From Enterobacter phage CC31, in sequence record NC_014662.1: a stretch of DNA of 64,000 nt; one strand, given 5' to 3'. Made by a program: the position numbers and the translations under genes. Shown in pieces: positions 2,966-62,324 of the stretch. The stretch's first letter is position 1; every line of letters starts with the position of its first letter. A model generated the notes under the pieces. It was given only the letters and a program-made list of their open reading frames with translations, did no database searches and was not told the origin of the DNA.

Positions 2966-3302
2966 TTTTACCTCGGCATTCCGTAATGAATTCTTCTGAT
3001 TCTCTGATTATTCTATTATGAAGAACTTTAGCATTCTGTTCAGCTAAGCGTTTATTTTCTGGTCGCATCACCCACCAAATAGCAATTTCTTGTGATTTTC
3101 CGTGAGACCAAAGTAGAACTGGAATAGAAAGAAACATTGATACTACAACCCAAATTGGAGCATATACTCCGTCATTAAGTATTAAAGCAGGAACAAAAAT
3201 TAAAAGCACCGCCACTGAACTAAAAGCCAAAAATATTATCATATGTAAAAATTCTGCTTTTGCTGCAAGCTCTCTTAATTCACTTTTTGGTTGATACCCC
3301 AT
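2949..3302 (-). CDS. Small membrane protein, paralog 3
   Basis: 117 aa; two hydrophobic helices; C-terminal EEFITECRGKN. Confidence 0.55.
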   Translation of the reverse strand: MGYQPKSELRELAAKAEFLHMIIFLAFSSVAVLLIFVPALILNDGVYAPIWVVVSMFLSIPVLLWSHGKSQEIAIWWVMRPENKRLAEQNAKVLHNRIIRESEEFITECRGKNEIQS

Positions 3303-3304
3303 GA

Positions 3305-3679
3305 TTATTTCCTCGCTTTACGACAGTCGTTAATGAAGCATTCAAACCGTTCAGCTTTGCTGAGCTTTGATATTATTCTATTTCTTCGCATGCCAATTAA
3401 AATTTGTGCAATAAAATTAACAAATTCACCAATCAGCATAACAATGATACCAAACATTCCCCAACCAAAGCATGTGAATGCAGCCATTGCTCCAGCAGAG
3501 TCAGCTCTTTCTTCTTTTGGAAGATTTGTGATATCAGACCAACCCCAAAATACAATAATTCCGTATAGTGTCAATGCAACGCACCAGCAGAGCTTTTCAT
3601 TTCTGGTCAAAATATATCTGACTTTGGTTGAAAGAGAATCCGTTTTAGCAATTTTAGCTTTAAGTTCAGTTGAATTCAT
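3305..3679 (-). CDS. Small membrane protein, paralog 4
   Basis: 124 aa; CWCVALTLYGIIVFWGW and second helix; C-terminal FECFINDCRKARK. Confidence 0.55.
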   Translation of the reverse strand: MNSTELKAKIAKTDSLSTKVRYILTRNEKLCWCVALTLYGIIVFWGWSDITNLPKEERADSAGAMAAFTCFGWGMFGIIVMLIGEFVNFIAQILIGMRRNRIISKLSKAERFECFINDCRKARK

Positions 3680-3712
3680 TTTATTTTCCTCATAGGGCCC
3701 GAAGGCCCTTTA

Positions 3713-4630
3713 TCATTTGAACGGACGAATCATATCAAAGTTTTGTTTAAAGCGTTTGACATAATCTGTCTTTCCAAGTTTCTTATGCATTGCAACTATC
3801 TTATGGTAGTTTTCCCATGCATATTCACGAAACCAGCCAGATGTAATGCTAGTACAAACTTTTTCCAAAGCGTACATAAATGAACCCGTAGGGTCTGGGT
3901 TGAAATTATTTGGAATTTGATGGCGTTCTAAAGCAAGTACACAAGTTTCTTCATATACACCTGCAAGCTTAAGTTCTTCAGGAAGAGAATCGAACTTCTC
4001 TTTTGAAGTCATTACTTCAGAGCCATCTTTCATGTAGAAAGTATAAGCAGGACGACCAGCTAAAGCCACTGCTTCATGAATTGAATCGTGGTCATAGATG
4101 TAAAAATCATCTTTAAAGAAAGAATCTTTATCTACATCCAGATTAGGATGAGAATATGCTAATGTTTCTTTCTGGCGCAGTTCAGAAATCTTTTTCAGTT
4201 TACTGTCTAAAACAATTCCTTTATTACGCAAGAAACGAATATGATGCATAGTCTTTTGAAAGAAACGAGTGTTCTTCTTGAAACGATGAGACATCTTAAT
4301 TGCTAAGCACATCTCAGGAGTTGCCCAATACATCTGTGAAAGCGCATCATAGCACCCATTAAATACTGCGTAGTGAGCAAGCAGTTCAGATGAACTCTCG
4401 TCGTTATATTCAAAAATGTATGCTTCAAAATAGGTCTCACGACCATTATGCATGCATTTAAAGGCTTGTACATTAGGAGATTGAACTTCGACCTCTGTAC
4501 CATTCATACGGTTTTTGAAATGGAGCCATTCGCCCGGAGACGCGATGAAGTCCCAATCAGAATTCTTAACATCACTGTACTCAATGAGTCCATGGTGATG
4601 TAGAGCTCTAGAACCAATAACCAGCAACAT
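3713..4630 (-). CDS. Hypothetical protein, 305 aa
   Basis: Long ORF; N-terminal VIGSRALHHHG...SDWD loosely resembles a nucleotidyltransferase motif but spacing is non-canonical; C-terminal NFDMIRPFK tail. Confidence 0.5.
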   Translation of the reverse strand: MLLVIGSRALHHHGLIEYSDVKNSDWDFIASPGEWLHFKNRMNGTEVEVQSPNVQAFKCMHNGRETYFEAYIFEYNDESSSELLAHYAVFNGCYDALSQMYWATPEMCLAIKMSHRFKKNTRFFQKTMHHIRFLRNKGIVLDSKLKKISELRQKETLAYSHPNLDVDKDSFFKDDFYIYDHDSIHEAVALAGRPAYTFYMKDGSEVMTSKEKFDSLPEELKLAGVYEETCVLALERHQIPNNFNPDPTGSFMYALEKVCTSITSGWFREYAWENYHKIVAMHKKLGKTDYVKRFKQNFDMIRPFK

Positions 4631-4659
4631 AATATTTTCCTCTTTAGAATGTAGAACTA

Positions 4660-5001
4660 CTATAACACACTTGACTGATGTTGTAAACGGTTCTTTCTAC
4701 ACATTCTGATGAAGTTTTCAATAGGCTCTTCTGGTCTATTGGCTGGATAGCATTTCTTCCAGTTCCACCCTCCCAGCAAGTCAAAGATTTGGTCAGGAAG
4801 AGAATCCCATGGATGTTCTCTTTCGCGGAGTTGAAGCACAATATCACCGGCTGCTTCTCTAATTCCAGTATCAAGTTTTCCATTACAAATCACGACATCC
4901 ATGAGTACTGCAAGACAACAACTATCATGGCTTCCGTATTTGTTCGGATAGTAGAAATAATGGTCAATAATGTAGCAGCAATTACGGTCTAAACCTTTCA
5001 T
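4660..5001 (-). CDS. Hypothetical Cys-rich protein
   Basis: Start chosen at MKGLDRN (ATG 5001..4999 after AGGA); C-terminal ENFIRMCRKNR tail shared with downstream genes. Confidence 0.45.
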   Translation of the reverse strand: MKGLDRNCCYIIDHYFYYPNKYGSHDSCCLAVLMDVVICNGKLDTGIREAAGDIVLQLREREHPWDSLPDQIFDLLGGWNWKKCYPANRPEEPIENFIRMCRKNRLQHQSSVL

Positions 5002-5064
5002 AGTGTTCCTCCAGTGATTCTGGGGAAACTTTTCAGTTTCCCCATATATTACCATTAACAGCTG

Positions 5065-5137
5065 CTAGTGTACCTGGACTCGAACCAGGGAATCGTAGAA
5101 TCAAAATCTACTGCCTTACCAACTTGGCTATACCCCA
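5065..5137 (-). tRNA. tRNA-Gln (UUG), no encoded CCA, acceptor mismatch
   Basis: Manual fold: anticodon arm GTAGA-TTTTGAT-TCTAC, T-arm CCTGG-TTCGAGT-CCAGG; body close to remembered E. coli tRNA-Gln. Confidence 0.7.
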
Positions 5138-5143
5138 ACTGTT

Positions 5144-5220
5144 TGGAGGCGGGTGATGGACTCGAACCATCGCGTAACGGGATATGAACCCGTCATTCTA
5201 CCAACTGAAGTTAACCCGCA
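5144..5220 (-). tRNA. tRNA-Met/Ile2 (CAU)
   Basis: Anticodon arm ACGGG-TTCATAT-CCCGT, T-arm GATGG-TTCGAGT-CCATC, encoded CCA; position 1:72 unpaired. Confidence 0.65.
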
Positions 5221-5230
5221 CTTATCCGGA

Positions 5231-5318
5231 TTCCTGAAGTACAACGGCTGCTTTATGTAGAACTCACCTATTGTGAGGGAACAAAATCACTGGTCCTGGC
5301 ATTAATTATGGACCACCA
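5231..5318 (-). ncRNA. Candidate structured small RNA within tRNA island (not a tRNA)
   Basis: Outer 9-bp stem ttcctgaag/cttcaggaa enclosing two hairpins (GGTCC..GGACC and CTCAC..GTGAG); no T-loop motif. Confidence 0.35.
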
Positions 5319-5340
5319 TCTTCAGGAACTGCCTCGTATT

Positions 5341-5416
5341 TGGCGGACCTAACGGGATTCGAACCCGTGACTCTCACGTGACAGGCGAGTATTTTCACCG
5401 CTGAAACTATAGGTCC
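5341..5416 (-). tRNA. tRNA-Asp (GUC)
   Basis: Perfect cloverleaf: acceptor GGACCTA/TAGGTCC, anticodon arm CTCGC-CTGTCAC-GTGAG, T-arm ACGGG-TTCGAAT-CCCGT, CCA encoded. Confidence 0.8.
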
Positions 5417-5658
5417 AAATTATCTTTCGTGATTATGTGAATCCCTCAGGTTTTCCGGAAAACCGAATAGGCGACAAAAGCTCTCATATACCCGTGCACA
5501 GATATAATCTTTGTTAACTAGTGTCTGAATCAGTATAATCCGAAAGATAACTTTCGGCGCCGTATTTAATTTGAGATATGTAGTTATCGTTGAGGGAACT
5601 CATATTCAGGGATTAACATGCCGACGACTTTGTCAGAACGTCTTCCAACTTCTATATT

Positions 5659-5743
5659 TGGCGGGTCGTGCAGGTATCGAACCTGCCTAGTCATTTCTGA
5701 CACGGATTAACAGTCCGCCGCTTACCCTCTCAGCCAACGACCC
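5659..5743 (-). tRNA. Type-II (long variable arm) tRNA with Asn anticodon GUU
   Basis: 85 nt; acceptor GGGTCGT/ACGACCC, 3-bp D-stem, anticodon arm GCGGA-CTGTTAA-TCCGT, 15-nt variable hairpin GTCA-GAAA-TGAC, T-arm GCAGG-TTCGATA-CCTGC, G73, CCA. Confidence 0.6.
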
Positions 5744-5748
5744 AAATT

Positions 5749-5823
5749 TGGTTCTCCGTAAGAGAATTGAACTCTTCTTTCCGACGTGAAAGGCCGGCGT
5801 CCTAACCGATAGACGAACGGAGA
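5749..5823 (-). tRNA. tRNA-Glu (UUC)
   Basis: Acceptor TCTCCGT/ACGGAGA, anticodon arm CCGGC-CTTTCAC-GTCGG, T-arm AAGAG-TTCAATT-CTCTT, CCA encoded. Confidence 0.7.
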
Positions 5824-5824
5824 T

Positions 5825-5902
5825 TGGTAGGACGTGAGGGAGTTGAACCCATCGACATTCCGATTAAAAGTCGGATGCTCTAACCAACTGAGCTAACGTC
5901 CT
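5825..5902 (-). tRNA. tRNA-Lys (UUU), weak T-stem
   Basis: Acceptor AGGACGT/ACGTCCT, D-arm GCTC-AGTTGGTTA-GAGC, anticodon arm TCCGA-CTTTTAA-TCGGA; T-stem only 3 bp. Confidence 0.65.
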
Positions 5903-22828: not shown

Positions 22829-23490
22829 TGATTAGTGTATCTTCTTCAAAGGCGGGACTTAAGTCCCGCTCTGCAGCATTCCTGCAATATGAACTGGCTT
22901 CTGGAAGTATTGATGTAATGAATACTCAGCCGCTCGGTTCAAATACAATTTCTCAAAAATATCAAGGTGTTGATTTTCCTAACGTCCAATCCGCTATAGA
23001 AGATGTCCGTGGATTCGCTATTCTTCCTATTGGCTCAATTGTTATAAACGATACTGGTACCTCACCAGAGGGTATTCAGCAAATAGATGATTGGACTTTT
23101 ACTGGAACAGTTGAATTTGAAGGAAAAACTACAGGAGATTCAGTTCTTGTAGATGTTTATGGATTCATGGTACCTGCGCTAGTAGGTGATACTGATACTG
23201 AGTTTACTGCAAAAGTTAAAACCACTCTTGAGAATGCTATAACTGCAGGAGAAATTATTTCTTCTGTTGAAGTATCTTCATCCGCTGGTAATATTTTGAA
23301 TGTTAAATACATAGACAACCAAGAACATGTACTTCCTTCGTATTCATCATGCGGAATTTCTATTTCAGCGTCAATTCAATCTCCTTCTAAAGTAGGTTAT
23401 GGGTCTTGGGAATTAATTGGTCGTCAATCACTAACGTTTGACGGTGCTTCGGCTCCTACCGTCTTACAATACTTTAAGAGAATGGGTTAA
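22828..23490 (+). CDS. 11: gp11 baseplate wedge / short-fibre attachment
   Basis: 220 aa (T4 219); synteny. Confidence 0.85.
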   Translation: MISVSSSKAGLKSRSAAFLQYELASGSIDVMNTQPLGSNTISQKYQGVDFPNVQSAIEDVRGFAILPIGSIVINDTGTSPEGIQQIDDWTFTGTVEFEGKTTGDSVLVDVYGFMVPALVGDTDTEFTAKVKTTLENAITAGEIISSVEVSSSAGNILNVKYIDNQEHVLPSYSSCGISISASIQSPSKVGYGSWELIGRQSLTFDGASAPTVLQYFKRMG

Positions 23491-26491: not shown

Positions 26492-27430
26492 ATGGCCGCA
26501 AATACCGCACGAAATCCAAAAGAACTTAAAGACGTTATTCTGCGTCGCCTTGGTGCACCAATCATTAACGTCGAATTAACCGAAGATATGATTTATGATT
26601 GTATCCAACGAGCTTTAGAGCTATTCGGTGAATATCATTATGACGGCTTAAATAAAGGCTATCAAGTAATTCATATTGGCGATGACGAAATTGGTTGTGG
26701 TCAATTCAAAAACGGTGTGTTTGATTTTTCAGACCGTAACATTTTCGCAGTAACACAGATTGTTCGTACTAACGTTGGTTCATTAACGAGTATGGACGGT
26801 AATGCTACCTATCCATGGTTCACCGACTTCCTTTTGGGAATGGCTGGAATTAATGGTGGTATGGGTAGCTCTTGTAATAAAGCTTATGGACCAAATGCAT
26901 TTGGTGCTGACCTTGGCTATTTTACTCAGCTAACAACTTATTGGTCAATGATGCAAGATATGCTTGCTCCGTTGCCTGATTTCTGGTTCAACGACGCTAC
27001 TGGCCAACTCAAAATAATGGGTAACTTCCAGTTAGGTGACGTAATTGTAGTTGAATGCTGGACTAAATCTTATATTGATGTGGATAAAATGGTTGGAAAC
27101 ACTGCAGGATATGGAACAGCAGGCCCAGAAACATCTTGGACTCTTCCTGATGTGTATGATAATCCAGATAAACGCTTAACTGGTTACAGAGCTGGTGAAG
27201 AACTTTCAATTGTTCAAGGCTCTTATAACAACCGTTGGGTGAAAGATTATGCTCATATTCTGGCCAAAGAATTACTTGGCCAAGTATTAGCTCGTCACCA
27301 AGGTATGCAGCTTCCAGGCGGAGTCACATTAAATGGTGAACGTTTAATTGAAGAAGCTCGATTAGAAAAAGAATATGCTTTAGAACAGCTTTATTTACTT
27401 GACCCTCCAACAGGAGTACTTGTAGGATGA
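26492..27430 (+). CDS. 13: gp13 neck protein
   Basis: 312 aa; synteny. Confidence 0.85.
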
Positions 27431-45060: not shown

Positions 45061-46563
45061 ATGCACGATATCAATGTAAAATTTCATGATTTTAGTCATG
45101 TGTTTATTGAATGTGATGAATCCACATTTCATGAACTAAGAGACTATTTTAGTTTTGAAGCTGATGGCTACAAATTCAATCCAAAATACCGTTATGGGCA
45201 TTGGGATGGACGTATTCGTCTTCTGAACTACGATCGTCTGCTTCCGTTTGGCCTCGTCGGACAAATCCGCAAATTCGCTAATAGTATGGGTTATTCAGTT
45301 TACTTCGAACCGAAGATTTTTGAGACTGAAGAAATTACTCGTGAAGCGTTTGATGATTGGCTGGGCAATCTCAATATTTACTCTGGGAGTAAAAAGATTG
45401 AGCCTCACTGGTATCAGAAAGATGCAGTGTTTGAAGGATTAGTTAATCGCCGTCGAATTTTGAACCTTCCAACGTCTGCTGGTAAATCTTTAATTCAATG
45501 CTTACTTGCTCGTTATTATGTTGAGAATTATGAAGGTAAAATTTTAATCATCGTTCCAACAACAGCATTAGTAGACCAGATGATTAACGACTTCTGTGAT
45601 TATCGTCTATTTGGTAAACAACATTGTCTTGGTATTCGTTCAGGTACAAAGCGTGATTCTGATGCAATGATTTATGTTGCCACCTGGCAAACAGCAGTAA
45701 AACAGCCAAAAGAGTGGTTCCATCAATTCGGCATGATGATGAACGATGAATGCCACCTGGCTACCGGTAAGTCTATTTCTACTATCGTTGCTGGTCTAAA
45801 TAACTGCATGTTTAAGTTCGGCTTATCCGGTTCATTAAAAGACGGAAAAGCTAATATCATGCAATATGTTGGAATGTTTGGTGAAATTTTCAAACCAGTT
45901 TCAACATCACAGCTTATGGAAGATGGACAAGTAACTGACTTAAAAATTAACTCTATTTTCCTTCGGTACCCGGATGAGTTTACCGTCAAAATGAAAGGTA
46001 AAACTTATCAAGAAGAAATTAAAGTTATTACAAATGCAAAACGTCGCAATAAATGGATAGCTAATCTTGCAGTAAAATTGGCTAAGCGAGACGAAAATGC
46101 ATTTCTGATGTTTAAACACGTGGCTCACGGTAAAGAGCTATTTGAAATGATTAAAGAACTTGGGTATGAGAAAGTGTATTATGTTTCAGGGGAAGTTTCT
46201 ACTGAAGTTCGTAATGCTCTGAAGGTGATGGCTGAAAATGGAACAGGAATTATCGTAGTTGCGTCTTATGGCGTTTTTTCTACTGGCATTTCTGTAAAGA
46301 ATCTCCATCATGTTATTTTAGCTCACCCAGTTAAATCAAAAATTATCGTTCTGCAAACAATCGGTCGCGTACTTCGTAAACATGATTCTAAATCAGTTGC
46401 TACAGTATGGGATATCATCGATGATATGGGTGTTAAACCAAAATCAGCAAATGCTAAGAAAAAATATGTTCATTTGAACTATGCTTTAAAGCACGCGCTG
46501 GAGCGCATTCAAAGATATGCAGACGAAAAATTCAATTACGTAATGAAACAAATCGATATTTGA
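45061..46563 (+). CDS. uvsW: UvsW DNA/RNA helicase
   Basis: Start at MHDINVKFHDFSHV; Walker A PTSAGKS, DECH box MMNDECHLATGKS match T4 UvsW. Confidence 0.95.
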   Translation: MHDINVKFHDFSHVFIECDESTFHELRDYFSFEADGYKFNPKYRYGHWDGRIRLLNYDRLLPFGLVGQIRKFANSMGYSVYFEPKIFETEEITREAFDDWLGNLNIYSGSKKIEPHWYQKDAVFEGLVNRRRILNLPTSAGKSLIQCLLARYYVENYEGKILIIVPTTALVDQMINDFCDYRLFGKQHCLGIRSGTKRDSDAMIYVATWQTAVKQPKEWFHQFGMMMNDECHLATGKSISTIVAGLNNCMFKFGLSGSLKDGKANIMQYVGMFGEIFKPVSTSQLMEDGQVTDLKINSIFLRYPDEFTVKMKGKTYQEEIKVITNAKRRNKWIANLAVKLAKRDENAFLMFKHVAHGKELFEMIKELGYEKVYYVSGEVSTEVRNALKVMAENGTGIIVVASYGVFSTGISVKNLHHVILAHPVKSKIIVLQTIGRVLRKHDSKSVATVWDIIDDMGVKPKSANAKKKYVHLNYALKHALERIQRYADEKFNYVMKQIDI

Positions 46564-52782: not shown

Positions 52783-53832
52783 ATGGCTATAAGAGCTACA
52801 GAAATTCTAGATAAAGCTTTCGGCAGTGGAGAAAAGACCTCTGCCGGCCAAAGCTCTATTTCATCAACTCGAAGAAGTACTGTAACAGCTCAATATCCGG
52901 CAGAACGTTCTGCCGGTAACGACGCTGCAGGAGACCTTCGTGTTCATGACCTTTATAAGAACGGATTGCTGTTTACTGCATACGATATGAGTTCAAGAAC
53001 GACTCCCGACCTTCGTAGTATGCGTCAATCACAATTGAGTAAATCAGCAAGTTCTATTCTCAATAGTCTTGGAATTAAAAACAACGGACAAGTCGATAAA
53101 TCTCCGATTGCGAATATTTTACTTCCACGTTCTAAATCAGACGTTGAATCAATATCACACAAGTTCAATGATGTTGGTGATTCATTAATGACTCGTGGTA
53201 ATAACTCAGCTACTGGAGTATTGAGTAACGTTGCATCTACAGCAGTATTTGGTGCATTAGATTCAATCACTCAAGGTCTGATGGCTGACAATAACGAGCA
53301 AATCTATAACACTGCACGAAGCATGTATGCGGGCGCAGATAACAGAACGAAAGTATTCACTTGGGATTTGACTCCTCGTTCAGTGGCGGATTTGGTTTCA
53401 ATTATTCAAATATACGAGTACTTTAACTATTTCAGCTACGGTGAAACCGGTAATTCAACTTATGCTAAAGAGTTGAAAGGACAATTAGATGAGTGGTACA
53501 AAACAACTCTGTTATCTCCATTGACTCCAGATGGAGCTGATTTGAATAACACAATGTTTGAAAATATCACTTCATTCTTAAGTAATGTTATTGTTGTGAC
53601 TAACCCAACGGTATGGTTCATCAGAAACTTTGGTAAGACATCTAAATTCGATGGAAGAGCTGAAGTGTTTGGCCCATGCCAGATTCAGAGTATTCGCTTC
53701 GATAAAACTCCGAATGGTCAATTCAATGGTTTAGCAATTGCTCCTAATATGCCAAGCACATTCACTCTGGAAATTACTTTCCGTGAAATCTTGACACTGA
53801 ACAGAGCATCACTTTATGCAGAAGGTTTCTAA
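52783..53832 (+). CDS. 48: gp48 baseplate tail-tube cap
   Basis: 349 aa; synteny. Confidence 0.85.
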   Translation: MAIRATEILDKAFGSGEKTSAGQSSISSTRRSTVTAQYPAERSAGNDAAGDLRVHDLYKNGLLFTAYDMSSRTTPDLRSMRQSQLSKSASSILNSLGIKNNGQVDKSPIANILLPRSKSDVESISHKFNDVGDSLMTRGNNSATGVLSNVASTAVFGALDSITQGLMADNNEQIYNTARSMYAGADNRTKVFTWDLTPRSVADLVSIIQIYEYFNYFSYGETGNSTYAKELKGQLDEWYKTTLLSPLTPDGADLNNTMFENITSFLSNVIVVTNPTVWFIRNFGKTSKFDGRAEVFGPCQIQSIRFDKTPNGQFNGLAIAPNMPSTFTLEITFREILTLNRASLYAEGF

Positions 53833-61802: not shown

Positions 61803-62324
61803 TTAGTTCACTTCTGTGAAAATTGTTTGAGGAACTTGCTCGGTTTTGGCAGTTGCAATCATCTTCATAATGGCAGCTTTTCCTTCAATGTTTTTACGCA
61901 AGAACGACTTGCATGCATCATGAGCTTCTTCGGACGTCATAAGCGTAGCTATTGAACGCGCTTCCCCTACTTGGTCCAGATTCAACCAAACGTTTTCTTT
62001 CTTAGTCTGGCCAAAAGCCGCATACATCACTTCAACGGTCTTTTCTTCAGTTTCAATCAGAAAATTTTTAATTTCATTTGAAGTAAACCAAGGACACGAA
62101 TCGCCATTCATACCATCAATATCAGCACCCTTTGGACTTATCCAGCCTTCATTTTCAAATCGGATAAGACCAATAGAACCTGAAGCAATTGCTTCACCCT
62201 TTGCAATGTAAAAAGGTCTGTCACCGATATAATCGGCAATCAATTGATTTACTCGCTGATTGCATCCTTCAGCGAACTTTAAAAAACCTTCTTTGTCTAA
62301 GCGGTACAGAACATCACTTTTCAT
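61803..62324 (-). CDS. Hypothetical protein
   Basis: 173 aa ORF. Confidence 0.5.
   Translation of the reverse strand: MKSDVLYRLDKEGFLKFAEGCNQRVNQLIADYIGDRPFYIAKGEAIASGSIGLIRFENEGWISPKGADIDGMNGDSCPWFTSNEIKNFLIETEEKTVEVMYAAFGQTKKENVWLNLDQVGEARSIATLMTSEEAHDACKSFLRKNIEGKAAIMKMIATAKTEQVPQTIFTEVN

Follow-up and report, generated by a model that had tools for sequence, protein, structure and literature searches.

The 242-bp region between the genes for tRNA-Asn and tRNA-Asp (positions 5417-5658) in the tRNA island of Enterobacter phage CC31 (NC_014662.1) was analysed within the whole stretch of 64,000 nucleotides to which it belongs, hereafter called the window. The source is a T4-like myovirus of the Karamvirus type. 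Every gene around the region, including both flanking tRNAs, reads on the minus strand, which is referred to as the tRNA strand. Read 5' to 3' on this strand, the island is composed of tRNA-Tyr, -Ile, -Lys, -Glu and -Asn, the 242-bp region, tRNA-Asp, a gap of 120 bp, and tRNA-Met and -Gln. The upstream boundary of the region is formed by tRNA-Asn(GUU) (5743-5659, minus), in which CCA is encoded, and the downstream boundary by tRNA-Asp(GUC) (5416-5341, minus); both were detected with ARAGORN and Rfam. Judged by sequence comparison and structure modelling, the region very probably consists of two neighbouring minus-strand genes for small structured RNAs, which would fill it from end to end. These are module B, an rnaD-like small RNA of about 105 nt (5658-5554), and module A, a 137-nt Y-shaped RNA (5553-5417). 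Their homology, their strand, their boundaries by homology and their secondary structure by covariation are established by the analysis.

A sequence-only reading of this DNA had described the region as an AT-rich spacer without a tRNA and without a convincing open reading frame (ORF). The last two points hold, as ARAGORN and Rfam placed tRNAs only on either side and none inside even at E ≤ 10, and the longest ORFs inside the region comprise 26-29 amino acids. The region is AT-rich in relation to the flanking tRNAs, but not in relation to the window (GC content 0.38 and 0.40, respectively). It is also not a spacer, because it contains two RNA modules conserved across phage genera. The further suggestion of a second small RNA was borne out and even understated: there are two structured modules, each with compensatory base changes. 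The comparison with relatives and the RNA structure prediction, which had been proposed as checks, revealed independent conservation of both modules across phage genera and conserved folds with compensatory changes in both.

Module B, an rnaD-like RNA

Both modules adjoin the flanking tRNAs without a gap. Module B begins one base past the encoded CCA of tRNA-Asn, at 5658, and module A ends at 5417, right at the 5' nucleotide of tRNA-Asp. When the 242 bp were compared with 50,697 phage records by blastn, 106 records were obtained, and the conservation fell into two blocks, 5418-5552 (module A) and 5542-5658 (module B). The first block is kept alone in Marfavirus and in E. coli phage EcS1, the second alone in Jiaodavirus and Moonvirus, and the core of module B (5557-5630) is kept even in rV5-like Vequintavirinae phages. 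Module A of EcS1 stands by itself between tRNA-Lys and tRNA-Asn. An rnaD-type RNA without module A is present in KM16, where it is joined straight to tRNA-Asp, and in the Vequintavirinae phage UPEC06. From these sequence comparisons, modules A and B appear to be independent cassettes. In Pectobacterium phage PM2 (L053 6100-6221 and 6228-6365, minus), module A is followed by a full-length rnaD-type match (35.9 bits) and preceded by no more than a weak rnaD-like one (11.5 bits, E = 0.56); therefore, the order of the cassettes is not fixed. The minus strand of the region folds with a z-score of -2.68 against shuffled sequences, the plus strand with -1.0.

The nearest GenBank records are those of Enterobacter phages CW742 and PG7 (about 94% identity across the tRNA island), and an IMG/VR contig (UViG_650627040_000001) is identical to window positions 3139-5886. 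The annotation was checked in roughly 90 related phage records, consisting of the 60 best ones and of spread samples that covered the window region and the Jiaodavirus type of module A. Under the match it was blank or 'hypothetical protein' and never an RNA gene; one entry names just the adjacent tRNA-Asp. An Rfam cmscan of 5417-5658, which included ribozymes, riboswitches, small RNAs, Y RNA and 6S RNA, gave nothing at E ≤ 10 nor at the gathering threshold. T4 rnaC and rnaD have no Rfam family of their own.

In T4, tRNA-Arg is followed by rnaD (species 2 RNA, 119 nt; 71053-71171) and then by rnaC (species 1, 139 nt). Module B and T4 rnaD gave an ambiguous result when only this pair was aligned, and a profile of T4-type sequences alone matched module B only marginally (E = 0.038). 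The homology was settled by UPEC06 and by a covariance model. UPEC06 bridges the subtypes in nhmmer searches, with 2e-9 to the module of the window and 5e-10 to T4 rnaD. The covariance model (R2) was built only from T4-type sequences and UPEC06, without any Karam-type sequence, and it matched window positions 5556-5656 on the minus strand with 37.1 bits (E = 6e-8) over its full length (model positions 1-120). The UPEC06 element itself (L005 1498-1598, minus) is a clear rnaD homolog located directly after tRNA-Met in a phage of the rV5 type, a member of a family other than that of T4, and its sequence is intermediate between the T4 type and the Karam type.

In an alignment of 18 sequences (A6), the blocks AAGTCGTCGG, TCCCTG and ACGGCG are invariant; in RNA form, AAGUCGUCGG, UCCCUG and ACGGCG are common to module B and T4 rnaD. 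RNAalifold analysis of 18 members of the rnaD family predicted a closing stem and inner helices with compensatory changes in 8 of 15 pairs. In module B, the closing stem GUCGUCG/CGGCGC is formed by 5628-5622 with 5562-5557 (minus) and closes the domain that comes after a 5' hairpin (about 5649-5632, minus). This 5' hairpin occurs in every subtype with differing sequences, the arms being ACCGG/CCGGU in T4, UCGGG/CCCGA in UPEC06, GUUGGAA/UUCUGAC in the window and GUCAGAA/UUCUGAU in KP182.

Module B and T4 rnaD thus share sequence homology, the secondary structure consisting of closing stem, inner helices and 5' hairpin, and a position on the tRNA strand of a tRNA island directly behind (3' of) a tRNA (PMC3014915). 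By sequence and covariance-model comparison, module B is a new, hitherto unannotated member of the T4 rnaD family. The two RNAs differ in length (about 105 versus 119 nt), because the central hairpin domain of module B is much shorter, and in the 3' end, which reads ...GCGCCGA in module B and ...GCGCACCA in T4. They also differ in their neighbours, which are tRNA-Asn and module A here and tRNA-Arg and rnaC in T4.

Module A and the junction hairpin

Module A is predicted to fold into three helical parts. The terminal stem P1 joins the 5' and 3' ends over 16-19 bp and closes a junction with P2 and P3. Its 5' strand AAGUUAUCUUUCGGAUUAU occupies 5553-5535 and its 3' strand AUAAUCACGAAAGAUAAUUU, with one bulged A at 5430, occupies 5436-5417 (both minus); cofolding of the strands gave -19.3 kcal/mol. 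The 16 consensus pairs of P1 are paired in 99% of the cases and 7 of them covary. The P1 core AGUU-NN-CUUUC/GAAAG-NN-AAUU is invariant even in the remotest members except for NN, which covaries (AU/UA/CG). This invariance suggests that the sequence might be recognised besides the shape. P2 is a long hairpin (5525-5473, minus) with an invariant 5-nt bulge AAGAU (5511-5507), an invariant UGAGAG (5486-5481) and an apical loop that holds the palindromic hexamer GUGCAC (5499-5494); 14 of 20 pairs in its two helices (helices 2 and 3) covary. P3 (helix 4; 5471-5443, minus) carries at its tip the palindrome GGUUUUCCGGAAAACC (5449-5464) with a CCGG tetraloop, and 7 of its 11 pairs covary, including U·G wobbles in relatives (GCUUUCCGGAAGGC).

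The fold was evaluated on two alignments. In the first (A7, 14 sequences), which was calculated with MAFFT and not fitted to the structure, 96.8% of the cells are paired and 25 of 46 pairs have changed on both sides. The mean of the shuffled controls was 10.4, none of 500 shuffles reached the observed value, and controls with slid positions gave 5-9. In the second (A9, 17 sequences, fitted with the covariance model), 97.2% of the cells are paired and 28 of 47 pairs have changed on both sides (0 of 500 shuffles reached this value). When sequences of module A were folded singly, the z-scores lay between -4.1 and -5.65. In the helices, G·U accounts for 93 cells and A·C for only 2, and pairing decreases from 96.8% to 82.5% when the alignment is read on the complementary strand. 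These observations show that the selected molecule is an RNA of the sense of the tRNA strand and not a DNA palindrome.

A covariance model for module A (R1) matched the window with 146.5 bits over the full model; as the window sequence is part of the seed, its membership holds by construction. Outside the seed, R1 scored PM2 with 92, POP12 with 76 and KP182 with 31.6 bits. Members were found in several subtypes of Karamvirus, in Marfavirus, in EcS1 (Kagamiyamavirus), in Jiaodavirus KP182, in the Pectobacterium phages PM2 and POP12 and in two metagenome contigs. The module of KP182 is diverged and has 125 nt; this type is conserved with at least 97.6% identity across 137 Jiaodavirus records. 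Pattern scans of IMG/VR and metagenome data yielded mostly chance matches, and the genuine new members were L069 and L090 (metagenome) and L053 (PM2). No homolog of module A was found in E. coli genomes, and R1 detected no further copies in the 64-kb window.

Module A resembles T4 rnaC in its size class, its paired termini and its position right downstream of an rnaD-type RNA. It was nevertheless rejected as an rnaC, because the two have no sequence similarity and relatives carry both. The pairwise alignment was unconvincing, R1 does not match T4 rnaC, and the tRNA-like T-arm of rnaC (CCGGGTTCGAATCCCGG) has no counterpart in module A; neither nhmmer nor R1 placed it in the rnaC family, and the T-arm-like motif GGTTCGAATCC is missing from it. 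With rnaC as the query, nhmmer found nothing anywhere in the 64-kb window, yet genuine homologs at other positions in relatives that also have module A; for example, CW742 possesses both rnaC (L001 332-470) and module A (L001 1855-1993). Judged by sequence and fold, module A seems to found a separate, apparently undescribed family of structured RNAs.

Three further ideas about motifs in module A were discarded. A hammerhead ribozyme had been considered for CW742 on account of UUGAUGA in J1/2 and GAAA in P1. Judged by eye, the motif is not conserved (CUGAUUC in the window, AUCGCCU in PM2) and GAAA lies at the wrong junction; there was also no Rfam match. A kink-turn at AAGAU/UGAGAG lacks, on inspection, the required GA step on the non-bulged strand. 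Intermolecular pairing of UGAGGG with UUCCCUCA of rnaD was ruled out, because UGAG(G/A)G covaries intramolecularly (columns 86/113) and rnaD occurs without module A.

A 118-nt element in UPEC06 (L005 893-1010, minus), located behind a terminator-like hairpin, has P1-like termini (AAGUUUUCUUUAAG...CCUUAAAGAGAAUUU) and an unrelated interior. The covariance-model E value of 0.07 is compatible with a distant relationship as well as with coincidence.

The boundary between the modules is spanned by the hairpin CCGAAAG-UUAU-CUUUCGG (5557-5540, minus; -9.3 kcal/mol). Its 5' arm comprises the 3' tail of module B and nucleotides 1-3 of module A, and its 3' arm is a segment of the P1 5' strand. Hairpin and P1 are therefore mutually exclusive (-9.3 versus about -19 kcal/mol). 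In 9 of 10 lineages examined, a corresponding sequence upstream is complementary to the P1 5' strand. EcS1, in which a tRNA and not rnaD lies upstream, is one of these lineages; KM16, which has rnaD and no module A, lacks the complement. In L069, GAAAGAUA is replaced by GGAAGGUA, and the pairing is retained through G·U. We infer that the junction hairpin is an 'anti-P1' leader which belongs to module A.

This hairpin (ccgaaag-ataa-ctttcgg at 5540-5557) and the perfect 16-bp palindrome ggttttccggaaaacc at 5449-5464 were the two symmetric elements to which the sequence-only reading had pointed, and both exist where it had placed them. In the 64-kb window, perfect palindromes of at least 16 bp occur 6 times (1.3 in dinucleotide shuffles; about 0.005 expected per 242 bp) and hairpins with a 7-bp stem and a loop of 3-6 nt occur 55 times (21.7 in shuffles; about 0.08 expected per 242 bp). 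Neither class is individually rare in 64 kb; because of these low expectations per 242 bp, their co-occurrence in one such region is far from chance. The excess of G·U over A·C and the G·U-preserving variants of the junction show that both are pieces of RNA helices and not DNA signals. The other five perfect palindromes of the window (16-20 bp) are located at 22852-22869, 26890-26905, 46412-46427, 52897-52916 and 62181-62196.

Alternative explanations and neighbouring features

Several observations weigh against two stable RNA genes at this locus. The boundary between modules B and A was inferred only from homology and from the limits of the helices. The encoded tRNA-like ACCA end is not present in module B, which ends with GCGC-CGA and is followed by module A. 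This end varies inside the rnaD family (GCGC-ACC(A) in the T4-type sequences and UPEC06, AAU in KM16, UGA in KP182), so that the CGA of the window was taken as a difference between subtypes. The covariation of module A was drawn from about eight lineages of related phages, and the counts are thus not independent events. The distribution of module A is narrow, with just 2 of 66 pattern matches in metagenomes being genuine. Finally, P1 is a nearly perfect helix of about 20 bp and could be a target of RNase III, which would speak against stability.

The modules might serve only as cis-acting punctuation, with helices that guide or insulate tRNA processing and with excised pieces that are degraded without a role in trans. 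Each module adjoins a tRNA or another module and has termini paired like an acceptor stem, and the conserved anti-P1 hairpin resembles a folding or processing device. The conservation exceeds this need, since the unpaired bulge AAGAU, UGAGAG and the paired P1 core are invariant in distant lineages. Of 17 sequences, 15 have GUGCAC in the P2 loop; POP12 and KP182 carry other palindromic hexamers there. Furthermore, many tRNA junctions of the same island measure just 1-10 nt and lack such structures, KM16 does without module A between rnaD and tRNA-Asp, and RNAC and RNAD of T4 accumulate stably (PMC9697503). A purely punctuating function is therefore considered unlikely.

A function of the palindromes at the DNA level, as a site for a dimeric protein, a signal for replication or recombination, or a miniature inverted-repeat transposable element (MITE)-like element with terminal inverted repeats, is very improbable. 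The perfect 16-bp palindrome, the 19-bp terminal inverted repeats and the varying places of the element in tRNA islands would fit such a function. The acceptance of G·U but not of A·C in the helices is an asymmetry which only a single-stranded RNA of minus sense explains. In addition, U·G pairs keep the P2 apex from being a palindrome at the DNA level, conservation and covariation extend through the whole interior of the element, and neither the rest of the window nor E. coli genomes contain another copy.

An internal promoter, another suggestion of the sequence-only reading and one that would serve the distal tRNAs (Asp, Met, Gln), has equally little in its favour. Two sigma-70-like matches are located in the region (5511-5539 and 5630-5658), but both lie on the plus strand, antisense to all genes nearby, and such matches are no more frequent than chance predicts (4 found, 4.8 expected). 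Scans of the tRNA strand within the region found no promoter or terminator motifs: neither the late motif TATAAATA nor a strict MotA box is present, and the nearest TATAAATA on this strand is located at 5915-5908, in the gap between tRNA-Ile and tRNA-Lys (5940-5903, minus), which reads ATTTGCTTAAAGATATTTTTGTTATTATAAATATCTAC. Upstream of it lies the MotA-box-like TTTGCTTAA, which fails the strict pattern and agrees in 8 of 9 positions with the MotA-box consensus. By its sequence, this gap is a better candidate for an internal promoter (of Lys-Glu-Asn-B-A-Asp-G-Met-Gln, G being a module described below) than anything in the region. CW742 has an insertion of about 490 bp at the same gap. In the whole window, TATAAATA occurs 18 times versus 3.9 expected, consistent with T4-type late promoters throughout.

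It is extremely unlikely that the region encodes a small protein on the tRNA strand (MSSLNDNY..., 29 amino acids here and 52-61 in relatives). Karamvirus relatives share the start position of this ORF, which the records of several phages, CW742 among them, list as a 'hypothetical protein'. It begins, however, in the rnaD core and crosses two modules that are separable in other phages. Its length varies (29, 52 or 61 amino acids), its start codon alternates between ATG and GTG, and it is absent in Marfa, KP182 and EcS1, which retain RNA modules. There is no Shine-Dalgarno sequence upstream, no significant match was obtained in PHROG or Pfam, and the substitutions track helix pairing rather than codon positions.

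Decayed or insertion-interrupted tRNA genes can virtually be dismissed, even though the modules are tRNA-sized or about twice as long, have paired termini and lie in a tRNA array, and T4 rnaC carries a T-arm-like motif: no tRNA was detected in the region with ARAGORN or Rfam (RF00005) even at E ≤ 10, the T-loop motif is in neither module, and strong purifying and compensatory selection acts on a fold that is not a cloverleaf.

Beside the two RNA modules of the region, a third conserved structured RNA, module G (5340-5221, minus), fills the 120-bp gap between tRNA-Asp and tRNA-Met. Homologs were detected by nhmmer in loci of the Karam, Marfa, EcS1 and KP182 types, and in Marfa the module lies directly behind module A. 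RNAalifold gave compensatory changes in 13 of 30 pairs (folding z-score -1.85), and the terminal stem covaries (GUUCUUGAAG/CUUCAAGAAC versus GUCUAAAGAG/CUCUUUAGAC). The motif GUUCCC is common to module G and the rnaD family.

Further observations concern the tRNA genes of the island. tRNA-Tyr(GUA) (6110-6026, minus), with a long variable arm and an encoded CCA, was overlooked by ARAGORN and detected by Rfam (39.1 bits); the records of relatives annotate tRNA-Tyr there. tRNA-Asn(GUU), with 82-85 nt, contains a 12-nt insertion ucagaaaugacu near the variable arm, which is atypical for tRNA-Asn. Annotations of several relatives give this length too, and PG7 labels the gene 'tRNA-Asx'. In the window (4660-5064), the island ends after tRNA-Gln and is followed by an ORF of 131 amino acids. 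The islands of relatives, compared in CW742 (L001 1-1500), go on with His, a homing endonuclease, Ser, Trp, an rnaC homolog, Gly, Pro and Phe.

Processing and possible roles

As the modules lie flush with the tRNAs, the cuts of tRNA processing must set their outer ends. The processing sites that the sequence-only reading had considered are plausible for this reason and because the junction hairpin spans the boundary between B and A. In T4, a dimeric precursor of species 2 and species 1 is split by RNase P and RNase E, and the same enzymes are expected to act here. Modules B and A would be part of a polycistronic tRNA precursor whose promoter would lie upstream of the region. From the anatomy of the locus and the established biology of RNase P and RNase E, processing of the 3' end of tRNA-Asn would free the 5' end of module B. 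The cut of RNase P at +1 of tRNA-Asp would give module A a 3' end that coincides with the foot of P1, and a cut at the B/A junction would separate both RNAs. During transcription, the anti-P1 hairpin would form first and be displaced later by the more stable P1; this exchange probably orders folding or exposes the junction for cleavage. The products would accumulate during infection as stable protein-binding or decoy-type RNAs, as RNAC and RNAD do in T4, where they are stable species (PMC9697503). Most likely, both RNAs are excised from the tRNA precursor and persist as stable molecules. In view of the counter-defence function of phage tRNA islands (PMC11464382, PMC13096335), a role as decoy or in protein binding is the leading guess, held with low confidence.

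Non-tRNA pieces of tRNA precursors can act in trans. One example is the E. coli 3'ETS-leuZ sponge, which is freed by processing nucleases. Sponges of this type are short, largely unstructured and act by base pairing, whereas the modules are long, highly structured and conserved in their loops. In the pRNA of phage phi29, the 5' and 3' ends form a terminal helix with a three-way junction and two loop-bearing hairpins, whose loops pair with each other. Module A shares the terminal helix and the two hairpins with pRNA, but in most lineages its loops are self-complementary. ROOL and GOLLD are phage-associated RNAs, often located beside tRNAs, which self-assemble via loop-loop contacts. They are 4-6 times larger than module A, which might assemble in a similar way. 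Rfam scans revealed no similarity of module A to pRNA, ROOL or GOLLD.

Most members of the module A family carry GUGCAC in the P2 loop (5494-5499 in the window) and CCGG in the P3 loop (5455-5458 in the window). The loops are AUGCAU and CGCG in POP12 and GGUACC and UUCG in KP182. Three of four independent loop replacements are thus still palindromic, compared with about 1 in 16 expected for each; the sample is small and the count was made post hoc. The apical loops show what is possibly a kissing-loop signature. That module A might be a trans-acting phage RNA which associates with itself through two self-complementary apical loops is nevertheless rather doubtful at the level of sequence comparison.

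RNAC and RNAD were already known in the 1970s, and the literature still lists their roles as unknown (PMC3014915, PMC9697503). Two recent reports present phage tRNA islands as counter-defence loci (PMC11464382, PMC13096335), which makes conserved non-tRNA RNAs embedded in them obvious candidates for tests. As a group, module A, the rnaD-like RNA and module G could be 'cassette RNAs' of tRNA islands, which might bind or decoy a host factor, for example a tRNA-targeting defence nuclease or a processing enzyme.

Modules A and G appear to be new families in a known category, the small RNAs co-transcribed with phage tRNAs. The rnaD family reaches well past T4, into several genera of Straboviridae and even into a Vequintavirinae phage, with a conserved fold. 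At least two further families of structured RNAs, modules A and G, exist as mobile cassettes among the tRNA genes of T4-like phages of Enterobacter, Klebsiella, Citrobacter, Cronobacter, Pectobacterium and E. coli. None of the three families is in Rfam, and related GenBank records have no annotation or 'hypothetical protein' at these places. With the covariance models and alignments the families can be searched for, and the invariant loops point to mutations. If the cassette RNAs do act on a host factor, comparative genomics would open the 50-year-old question of what the species 1 and species 2 RNAs of T4 are for.

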